Origin: Enterobacteria phage T6 | Strand: one strand, 5' to 3' | Length of the DNA stretch: 64,000 nt | Sequence record: MH550421 | Shown here: piece by piece, positions 56,653 through 58,391 of the stretch | Numbering within the stretch: position 1 is the first letter of the stretch | Layout of the letters: every line of letters starts with the position of its first letter | Program-made: the position numbers and the translations under genes | The notes under the pieces: generated by a model | The model's input: only the letters and a program-made list of their open reading frames with translations | Told to the model about the DNA's origin: nothing | The model's database searches: none

Positions 56653-57582
56653 ATGTCAGGATATAATTCTCAGAATCCAAAGGAACTCAAAGATGTCATT
56701 CTAAGACGTTTAGGGGCTCCAATTATTAATGTTGAGTTAACACCCGATCAAATTTACGATTGTATCCAGCGTGCCCTAGAATTATACGGTGAATACCATT
56801 TTGATGGACTCAATAAAGGTTTTCATGTTTTTTATGTAGGGGATGATGAAGAAAAGTACAAGACCGGAGTCTTCGATTTAAGAGGTTCTAACGTATTTGC
56901 AGTAACCCGCATTTTACGCACAAATATTGGGTCAATAACATCTATGGATGGAAATGCTACTTATCCGTGGTTTACTGACTTTCTTTTAGGAATGGCTGGT
57001 ATTAATGGCGGAATGGGAACGTCTTGTAATAGATTTTATGGACCGAATGCCTTTGGTGCCGATTTGGGGTATTTTACTCAACTTACCAGTTATATGGGAA
57101 TGATGCAAGATATGCTCTCTCCTATTCCAGACTTTTGGTTTAATTCAGCAAATGAACAGCTAAAAGTCATGGGAAACTTCCAAAAATATGATTTAATTAT
57201 CGTAGAAAGCTGGACTAAATCATACATTGATACAAACAAAATGGTTGGAAATACAGTAGGATATGGAACAGTCGGTCCACAAGATAGCTGGTCATTATCT
57301 GAACGATATAATAATCCAGACCACAATTTAGTAGGTCGTGTTGTTGGTCAAGACCCAAATGTTAAGCAAGGTGCTTATAATAACCGTTGGGTGAAAGACT
57401 ATGCAACAGCTTTAGCTAAAGAATTAAATGGTCAAATTTTAGCACGCCACCAGGGAATGATGCTTCCGGGCGGTGTTACAATTGATGGGCAGCGCTTAAT
57501 AGAAGAAGCCCGATTAGAAAAAGAAGCACTGCGCGAAGAATTATACTTACTTGACCCTCCGGTGGGAGTGTTAGTTGGATGA
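56653..57582 (+). CDS. 13: Neck protein gp13
   Basis: 309 aa; order and length as T4 gp13. Confidence 0.92.
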
Positions 57583-58391
57583 ATTATACTAAAATTTACA
57601 ACTCTCTTATAGAAAGATCTCTTAAAAGAGGTCTTAATAAGAAAAAATTAGATTATTATACAGAATCACACCATATTGTCCCAAAATCCATGGGAGGAGA
57701 TGACTCTAGAGAAAACAGGGTTTTACTGACAGCAAGAGAACACTATTTTGCGCATGAGCTTCTTTTTAAAATACACCGAAATTCTGAAATGGCTTATGCC
57801 TTAATAAAATTCTCCAAGGGTACAAAAGAGCAGAGAATTGTAAGTAAAGATTACGGATGGATTAAAGAGGAAACATCTAAAATTAGATCAGAAACCATTA
57901 AAAAGTTTTGGGCGAATCTATCACCAAATTTAAAACAGGAACGAATTAAAAAAGCCGGAAAAGGCATTAAAAAAACTAAATCTTTATGGACAGATGAAAA
58001 GAGAAAAGAAGTTAATGCAAATATTCGAAAAGCTTCTGTGAAATATTTGGAATCGTTATCAGAAAACGAAATGTTAGAATATAAAGAAAGATGTTCTAAA
58101 CAAATGAAAGATTTTTGGTCTGAGCTTAAAAGTGACCCCCAAAAATACGAAAAGTATTTAAATAAACTATCTAAGGGTCTTGCAAAAGTCGAAAAGAGAA
58201 ATTGCCCGCATTGCGGAATTATATGTGATGTAGGAAATTATGGAAAATACCACGGCGATAAATGCAAAGTTATCACGGGTGTATCTCATAGCAGAGAAAA
58301 ATTAAAATGCCCGCACTGTTCTAAAATCATGGATAAGTCTCACGCTAAAAGATACCATTTTGACAATTGCAAATTTAAGAAGGTCGAATAA
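57579..58391 (+). CDS. HNH-family homing endonuclease with C-terminal zinc-finger repeats, inserted between genes 13 and 14
   Basis: 270 aa; HNH motif [31 protein letters not shown]; two CPHC...H..C repeats; ATGA overlap with the gp13 stop. Confidence 0.8.

Follow-up and report, generated by a model that had tools for sequence, protein, structure and literature searches.

The 64,000-nucleotide (nt) stretch of the Enterobacteria phage T6 genome analyzed here (sequence record MH550421; hereafter the window) contains, between the genes for the neck proteins gp13 and gp14, an open reading frame (ORF) of 270 amino acids (aa) that probably codes for a free-standing HNH homing endonuclease of the Mob type known from T-even phages, with specificity for the gene 13/14 boundary (Table 1). 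The interval 57000-59000 of the window is 100% identical to the T6 records AP018814 and NC_054907, and the local gene order places fibritin upstream of gene 13, and gene 15, followed by the terminase genes, downstream of gene 14. The start codon of the ORF (57579-57581) shares bases with the TGA stop codon of gene 13 (57580-57582) in the form of an ATGA overlap, while its own TAA stop codon (58389-58391) is separated by a single T (58392) from the ATG of gene 14, which begins at 58393. A first-pass annotation of the window, made from the letters alone, had described an HNH/zinc-finger ORF lying exactly between the two neck genes, with this overlap at its start, a 2-nt gap at its end and no intron context, and had given genes 13 and 14 as adjacent in T4. 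All of these statements hold except for the gap, which is 1 nt in length. In T4, T2 and PhiZZ23, which are without the insert, the TAA of gene 13 is likewise followed by a single T and the ATG of gene 14, such that the stop-to-start spacing at the right junction in T6 equals that of the insert-free junction. Gene 13 of T6 aligns colinearly with its T4 and T2 counterparts, and both neck genes are full-length and colinear with T4 around the 813-base-pair (bp) insert, indicating that the ORF is free-standing. An intron-encoded HNH endonuclease was considered and set aside, as no intron-like RNA family of the Rfam database matched in 55000-60500 and the insert lies between two complete genes.

Table 1. 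Features of the gene 13-gene 14 interval of phage T6, in window coordinates
Feature	Coordinates	Strand	Basis or remarks
Gene 13 (neck protein gp13 / head-tail adaptor Ad2), upstream neighbor	56653..57582	+	ORF; T6 RefSeq annotation
Recoded 3' end of gene 13, travelling with the insert	57559..57582	+	Fixed carrier/non-carrier differences
Predicted Mob-type free-standing HNH homing endonuclease gene	57579..58391	+	270-aa ORF; PHROG 655, MobE homology
N-terminal HNH (beta-beta-alpha-metal) nuclease domain, aa 1-66	57579..57776	+	Family-invariant E29, H31, H32, P35, G40, N46, H55, H59
Helical, lysine-rich middle with NUMOD3-like repeats, aa 93-202	57855..58184	+	Presumed extended DNA-binding region
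A7 homopolymer run in the ORF	57969..57975	+	Alignment column 1317; deletion site in SHFML-26
Zinc finger 1 (C209, C212, H225, C229), beta-beta-alpha	58203..58265	+	Conserved in four junction-specific orthologues
Zinc finger 2 (C244, C247, H260, C264)	58308..58370	+	Invariant columns in 76 homologues
Right junction (AAGAAGG, TAA-T-ATG)	58377..58395	+	Sequence comparison with insert-free junction
Gene 14 (neck protein gp14 / head closure Hc2), downstream neighbor	58393..59163	+	Pfam T4_neck-protein, E=1.3e-138; RefSeq annotation

The encoded protein matches the Pfam HNH_4 domain at aa 25-52 (24.4 bits, cut-off 22), displays two CPHC...H...C motifs near its C-terminus (aa 209-229 and aa 244-264), and is matched over its full length by PHROG 655, annotated as 'homing endonuclease' (E=2.7e-52). 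The invariant positions in an alignment of 76 homologues comprise M1, Y3, Y7 and L62 in addition to the residues of the HNH domain and of the second zinc finger given in Table 1; every one of these, catalytic and zinc-binding alike, is kept in the T6 protein, and the Pfam NUMOD3 domain is present in the middle region of most homologues. An AlphaFold2 model generated on the same alignment (mean predicted local distance difference test score, pLDDT, of 89.4) consists of an N-terminal beta-beta-alpha nuclease unit, long helices spanning aa 93-202, and two zinc-finger-like beta-beta-alpha units, at aa 206-224 (strands 206-208 and 215-217, helix 218-224) and aa 241-263 (strands 241-243 and 250-252, helix 253-263). 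Because the model is that of an extended, beads-on-a-string protein, the fold searches run with it returned weak, domain-sized matches alone (CTCF zinc fingers at low probability); whole-chain searches yielded weak matches only and did not recover I-HmuI. A sequence search of solved structures gave no match below E=0.07, and a search of NCBIfam gave none. The architecture is that of T4 MobE with one extra zinc finger, and the identification as an endonuclease is supported by all the comparisons run, namely those with HNH_4, PHROG 655, T4 MobE and RB3 MobD.

The distribution of the insert was assessed with two 120-nt probes, one across the T4 13|14 junction and the other across the T6 junction of gene 13 with the insert, a match to the former being counted at 80% coverage or more. 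The intact 13|14 junction is present in 428 phage records and the junction with the insert in 46; for at least 8 phages the latter include both the GenBank entry and the RefSeq copy. A search with the translated sequence recovered the same 46 records at 95% identity or above and none between 60% and 95%. Roughly one-tenth of the Tequatrovirus records thus have the endonuclease gene, and it lies between two neck genes in every listed carrier record whose annotation names the neighbors. These counts of filled and intact junctions establish that the ORF is a real insertion polymorphism rather than a chance ORF. Its composition displays no clear foreign-DNA signal. The first-pass annotation had allowed that a gene at the same position might already be annotated in T4 or its close relatives: this is indeed the case in the RefSeq record of T6, where the ORF is named 'homing endonuclease' (KMB99_gp239, YP_010067306.1), and in about 40 close relatives, but not in T4, which is without the gene. 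In the original GenBank record of T6 the ORF is labeled hypothetical. The prior annotation bears on novelty only, which is limited because the class is well known and the gene already goes by the name of homing endonuclease in public records. The T4 mobile-element review, which lists mobA-E and segA-G, has none at the 13|14 site (PMC2988022, Table 1), and searches of the literature on a 13/14 endonuclease, on T6 endonucleases and on the evolved phage T4_ev151 returned nothing specific to this gene.

We then compared gene 13, the insert and gene 14 in an alignment from eight carriers and four insert-free phages. Among the carriers, the mean pairwise divergence is 0.75% in the insert (19 of 810 positions variable; nonsynonymous:synonymous 8:11), 5.0% in gene 13 (for the gene body, 56653-57560; 108 of 927 variable; 7:101) and 3.0% in gene 14 (56 of 768 variable; 2:54). 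Hence, the insert has far fewer variable sites than the two neck genes taken together (19/810 vs 164/1695, p=1e-12), and a far greater fraction of these are nonsynonymous (8:11 vs 9:155, p=4e-5). In the flanks, carriers differ from non-carriers no more than they do from each other, with both being intermixed, and the same flanking haplotypes are found with and without the insert: the 181 nt of T6 preceding the recoded stretch are 98.9% identical to the insert-free PhiZZ23, and only 92-95% identical to other carriers. Presence and absence are thus polymorphic at a fixed site (46 vs 428 records), and in the eight carriers the element is younger than its flanks. The association of several flank haplotypes with an insert that is less diverged than those flanks calls for recent transfer, and a young, weakly constrained element on old flank haplotypes would be the expected footprint of recent spread by gene conversion.

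The relaxed constraint would also suit an inactive relic, kept by its linkage to the essential neck genes and by the ribosome-binding site that it offers gene 14, and lesions are indeed seen in individual copies. Shigella phage SHFML-26 has A6 in place of A7 in the homopolymer run, by which the gene is split into two annotated ORFs (L007, 2290-2891); the causes to be considered are decay of this copy, slippage at an on/off site and a sequencing error in the homopolymer. In Yersinia phage fPS-2 the substitution C216Y (equivalent to window 58225) removes a cysteine within zinc finger 1 that is kept in all four junction-specific orthologues, and may weaken that copy. Moreover, T4 itself has defunct endonuclease genes such as I-TevIII (PMC2790892). 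Against this, the ORF of T6 is full-length, the insert is far less diverged than the flanks and resides on several flank haplotypes, and orthologues with 52-57% identity at the same site, considered below, imply selection for function. Inactivity is therefore a possibility for individual copies; for T6 we hold it to be improbable, as its ORF keeps every residue that is invariant in the 76 homologues. The T6 gene is probably active as a Mob-type homing endonuclease, with the decaying copies representing the decay phase of the homing endonuclease life cycle or, for SHFML-26, a sequencing error.

Further support for a function tied to this site comes from distant relatives. Three full-length proteins with 52-57% identity were found in a large protein database, and the genes for all three lie in metagenomic T4-like contigs (L013, L014 and L015) directly upstream of a gene 14 homologue, and directly downstream of the end of gene 13 wherever the contig reaches that far. 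The flanks of L014 are 98.9% identical to Shewanella phage Thanatos-1, which is without the insert; the two constitute another, independent pair of filled and empty sites, from a phage very unlike T6. As in T6, the gene 13 stop and the start of the L014 gene share bases in an ATGA, and TAA-T-ATG closes the insert. The last codons of the T6 endonuclease gene encode a purine-rich, Shine-Dalgarno-like AAGAAGG (58377-58383) ahead of gene 14, and a purine-rich run precedes the gene 14 start in all four versions of the insert (AAGAAGG, GTGGGG, AAGGAG and AGAGG). It thus appears that gene 14, an essential gene, obtains its ribosome-binding site from the cassette. The long-term conservation at the same site at 52-57% identity implies selection for function and, on the evidence of the sequences, this lineage of inserts is site-faithful across genera. 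An IMG/VR scan with the alignment of the four orthologues recovered one identical copy and otherwise distant paralogues, with no further junction-specific members.

The sole fixed differences between the eight carriers and four to six insert-free phages are in the last ~20 nt of gene 13. This end reads CCG GTG GGA GTG TTA GTT GGA TGA in T6 and CCR GTG GGA GTG TTA GTT GGA TGA in all carriers examined, including the one with the most divergent flanks. The insert-free phages have CCA TTT GGA ATT TTG GTA GGT TAA or a second allele, CCG TTT GGA GTT ..., which is found in a15, SP21535 and Lv5cm and has two of the T6-type changes. The density of recoding, 7-9 changes in 24 nt against a background of 4.5%, is significant (p=5e-7 to 6e-5), and its effect on gp13 is limited to F-to-V and I-to-V replacements. 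A comparable pattern is seen in the Shewanella pair: L014 and Thanatos-1 are identical over the preceding 100 nt and then differ at 9 of the last 24 nt of gene 13 (p=3e-12), with the changes again altering the Phe codon and the following ATT-TTR. In their insert-free state, Tequatrovirus and Thanatos-1 have a nearly identical block, GACCC.CCATTTGG.ATTTT, against ~70% identity elsewhere. We infer that this block and the junction form part of the recognition sequence; carriers would then be protected in two ways, through the interrupted site and through the recoded end of gene 13. The comparison with insert-free junctions, which the first-pass annotation had suggested as a route to the cleavage site, thus points to a candidate region, the end of gene 13 plus the junction, rather than to the exact site.

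The same changes can be read in terms of translation, wherein the recoding would equip the endonuclease gene with its overlapping ATG and with a ribosome-binding site, or be a leftover of the donor flank, and not confer self-immunity. The replacement of GGT TAA by GGA TGA exactly creates the ATGA in both T6 and the Shewanella contig; the T6 changes additionally yield a Shine-Dalgarno-like GGGAG (57564-57568) 10 nt upstream of the ATG; and the gene 13 end is unrecoded in the two orthologues whose start is separate, with a spacer of 9 nt. However, the Shewanella recoding results in no convincing Shine-Dalgarno sequence, and both lineages alter the same Phe codon and ATT-TTR inside GACCC.CCATTTGG.ATTTT, as would befit a recognition sequence. 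A CUCC/GGAG hairpin at 57557-57568, which might mask the start region, folds no better than shuffled sequence (z=0.78). Hence, the recoding may serve the ATGA start and ribosome binding rather than immunity, and we regard translation signals as a live alternative, only a little short of an even chance. A more elaborate proposal, which we advance tentatively, is that of an immunized homing unit: the cassette would carry its own recoded target, its own coupling signal and the gene 14 ribosome-binding site, and its lineage would have tracked the GACCC.CCATTTGG.ATTTT block from Escherichia to Shewanella. Were such a late-active unit real, it could be an as yet unrecognized cause of mosaicism and partial exclusion around the neck-packaging module when T6 is crossed with T2 or T4, and in phage cocktails.

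With regard to expression, the first-pass annotation had envisaged co-transcription with the neck genes, which is plausible given the arrangement of the operon. The exact late-promoter box TATAAATA does not occur on the + strand between 50216 and 62338; across the window its exact matches are no more frequent than expected by chance, and those with one mismatch are uninformative (224 found vs 225 expected). Scans for sigma-70 promoters and terminators were at background level, with no convincing sigma-70 site or + strand terminator inside the gene. In these respects it looks like the promoterless cassettes that are read from upstream transcripts, such as mobE, mobA, mobC, mobD, segC, segF and segG (PMC2988022). 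Its location in the late neck operon points to late timing, and the overlap of the stop and start codons is suggestive of coupled translation at a low level (PMC2988022). Fibritin (wac) and gene 13 are separated by a 31-nt spacer, in which a perfect GGGGCC-GCAA-GGCCCC hairpin with a GNRA loop (56625-56640) is likely to be a transcript-stabilizing or attenuating structure upstream of the operon that includes the endonuclease gene.

Taken together, we posit the following course of events, in which cleavage and marker exclusion by the T6 protein are modeled on its characterized relatives. The endonuclease would be read from the late gene 13 message, with its translation coupled via the ATGA to the termination of gene 13. 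Its C-terminal modules would bind the 13|14 junction of a co-infecting phage that is without the insert, whereupon the HNH domain would nick or cut near the junction, after the manner of MobE in T2 nrdB. Recombination-dependent repair of the T4 type would then copy the cassette, along with adjacent gene 13/14 sequence, from the carrier, with super-Mendelian inheritance and local exclusion of the neck alleles of the competitor as the outcome. Marker exclusion of the neighboring packaging module, which the first-pass annotation had suggested, might be a further effect. The carrier itself would presumably be immune, since the insert interrupts its site and, in T6, gene 13 is recoded over its last ~20 nt, whereas translation of gene 14 would be kept up via the ribosome-binding site in the last codons of the cassette.

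Certain observations weigh against this picture. We found no paper showing activity, a cleavage site or biased inheritance for this protein, and the flanks of the eight carriers display no gradient of reduced diversity of the kind expected of a co-conversion tract. The raised nonsynonymous share, together with the SHFML-26 frameshift and the fPS-2 C216Y substitution, suggests that some copies are decaying. Further, in L015 and L013 the end of gene 13 is still T4-like (PPFGIL.G*), with no recoding, and so immunity does not universally require it. Finally, MobE nicks ~120 nt from its insertion point (PMC2790892), and so the target of the T6 enzyme need not be at the 13|14 junction.

The position of the gene, within the late operon for neck and packaging functions and a short way ahead of genes 15, 16 and 17, also lends itself to the idea of a weapon, which late in infection would damage the neck/packaging region of other T-even phages in the same cell and lower their yield, with or without copying of the cassette. 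Precedents for such roles are the intron endonuclease of phage PhiPA3, which interferes with a competitor (PMC11620839), and SegB of T6, with a role beyond homing (PMC13096335). No sequence feature, however, separates a weapon from ordinary homing, and carriage by only ~10% of relatives, with some copies decaying, is more in keeping with a selfish element than with a beneficial gene. We consider this rather unlikely as the principal role, even as it agrees with the data and could coexist with homing. The terminase genes are ~1.6 kilobases (kb) downstream, and HNH genes adjoining terminase genes are common in other phages (PMC3592412), which could be taken to mean that the protein is a packaging accessory assisting DNA cutting by the terminase, as in HK97-like cos phages. 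We view this as exceedingly improbable: genes 14 and 15 lie between the endonuclease and terminase genes; the layout of HNH domain, NUMOD3-like region and terminal finger, as well as the best matches, are of the Mob type, not of the compact terminase-associated HNH proteins; and ~90% of the close relatives, T4 and T2 included, package their DNA without the gene. Such a role is rejected on distribution, in light of the absence of the gene from T4, T2 and the 428 records with an intact junction. A free-standing Mob-type homing endonuclease remains the reading that we favor.

Several other observations pertain to mobile elements in the window and the neck module. A search for paralogues of the 13|14 protein in the window gave a single weak match in the HNH domain (930-1211, minus strand). 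It falls in a minus-strand ORF at 495-1349 (284 aa; homing endonuclease in RefSeq) that adjoins an SbcC-like (gene 46 type) nuclease gene, and whose HNH domain has 30% identity to the 13|14 protein over 95 aa. Other endonuclease genes of the T6 record within the window lie near 8.4-9.2 kb (by nrdD), at 18.5-19.6 kb and, in the case of segB, at 33.8-34.4 kb. A different Mob-like endonuclease gene occupies the 14|15 junction in many T4-like phages outside Tequatrovirus, including Klebsiella KpV477, Serratia LC53 and Yersinia phiR1-RT, and the metagenomic contig L013 combines the 13|14 insert with a 198-aa NUMOD3 ORF at 14|15 (1621-2217). The neck module hence looks like a hotspot for Mob-like elements. 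In phage vB_EcoM_G9062, a 55-nt tandem duplication in gene 14, after the equivalent of window 58873, truncates the annotated gp14 gene to 558 nt instead of 771; this may have arisen in assembly or be a genuine duplication, which would then affect an essential gene. Two annotation errors were also encountered: in AP018814, gp13 (56653-57582) is labeled 'aerobic NDP reductase large subunit', and in RefSeq an ORF of the mobD.1 region (~22653-23195) is labeled 'molybdopterin-guanine dinucleotide biosynthesis protein MobD', apparently from a name collision with the phage mobD.

The significance of the gene is modest, in that it adds an uncharacterized Mob-type element, at a site outside those of T4 mobA-E, in a classic laboratory phage. 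With T2 and T4 as ready-made empty sites, T6 offers a natural test case for homing driven by an HNH nickase, and a concrete 20-bp candidate target is provided by the end of gene 13, which has been recoded independently in two lineages. More generally, such elements can move between related phages in therapeutic cocktails, and explain local mosaicism in structural operons.

Among the known systems, the terminase-associated HNH proteins of cos phages (HK97 gp74 type) share with the T6 gene the HNH motif and nearby packaging genes; however, they are short, essential and found in all members of their group, whereas the T6 gene is optional (~10%) and has a Mob-type DNA-binding tail. I-HmuI and I-HmuII of the Bacillus phages SPO1 and SP82, whose homing starts from a nick, resemble the T6 protein in combining an HNH domain with an extended, modular DNA-binding tail (PMC2988022). 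In contrast to it, they are intron-encoded, and the sequence and fold searches run with the T6 protein returned no significant match to them. T4 SegF and SegG are intergenic cassettes between conserved genes, with the lifestyle proposed here for the T6 gene; they cut the insert-free relative and co-convert flanking markers, resulting in localized marker exclusion of T2 (PMC2988022). Unlike the T6 enzyme, they belong to the GIY-YIG class, make double-strand cuts and reside at the 56/69 and 32 loci. In the nuclease domain, the closest T-even paralogue is T4/RB3 MobD, with 47-50% identity over the first ~111-117 aa (RB3 MobD: 47%, only over the N-terminal 117 aa, E=5e-32). Its C-terminal half is, however, unrelated, with no zinc fingers aligned, its locus is nrdC.11/mobD.1, and its activity is listed as not determined (PMC2988022, Table 1).

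The closest parallel over the whole protein is T4 MobE (232 aa), encoded between nrdA and nrdB, which falls in the same PHROG 655 according to the label of its own record. The two proteins are 33% identical (E=6e-29) in an alignment that takes in the HNH domain, the NUMOD3-like repeats and the terminal finger, where the aligned MobE sequence reads CPHCGK...H.DKCK. Both genes are promoterless, with a start codon overlapping the stop of the upstream gene, nrdA in the case of MobE (PMC2988022). They differ in locus, nrdA|nrdB as opposed to 13|14 in the late operon, and in the T6 gene no internal terminator is found on the + strand; the T6 protein is also 38 aa longer and has two zinc fingers against one, with finger 1 being absent from MobE. 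MobE nicks one strand of the insert-free T2 nrdB and is over-inherited (PMC2790892), and one-strand nicking with over-inheritance is likewise on record for MobA (PMC2790892, PMC2988022).

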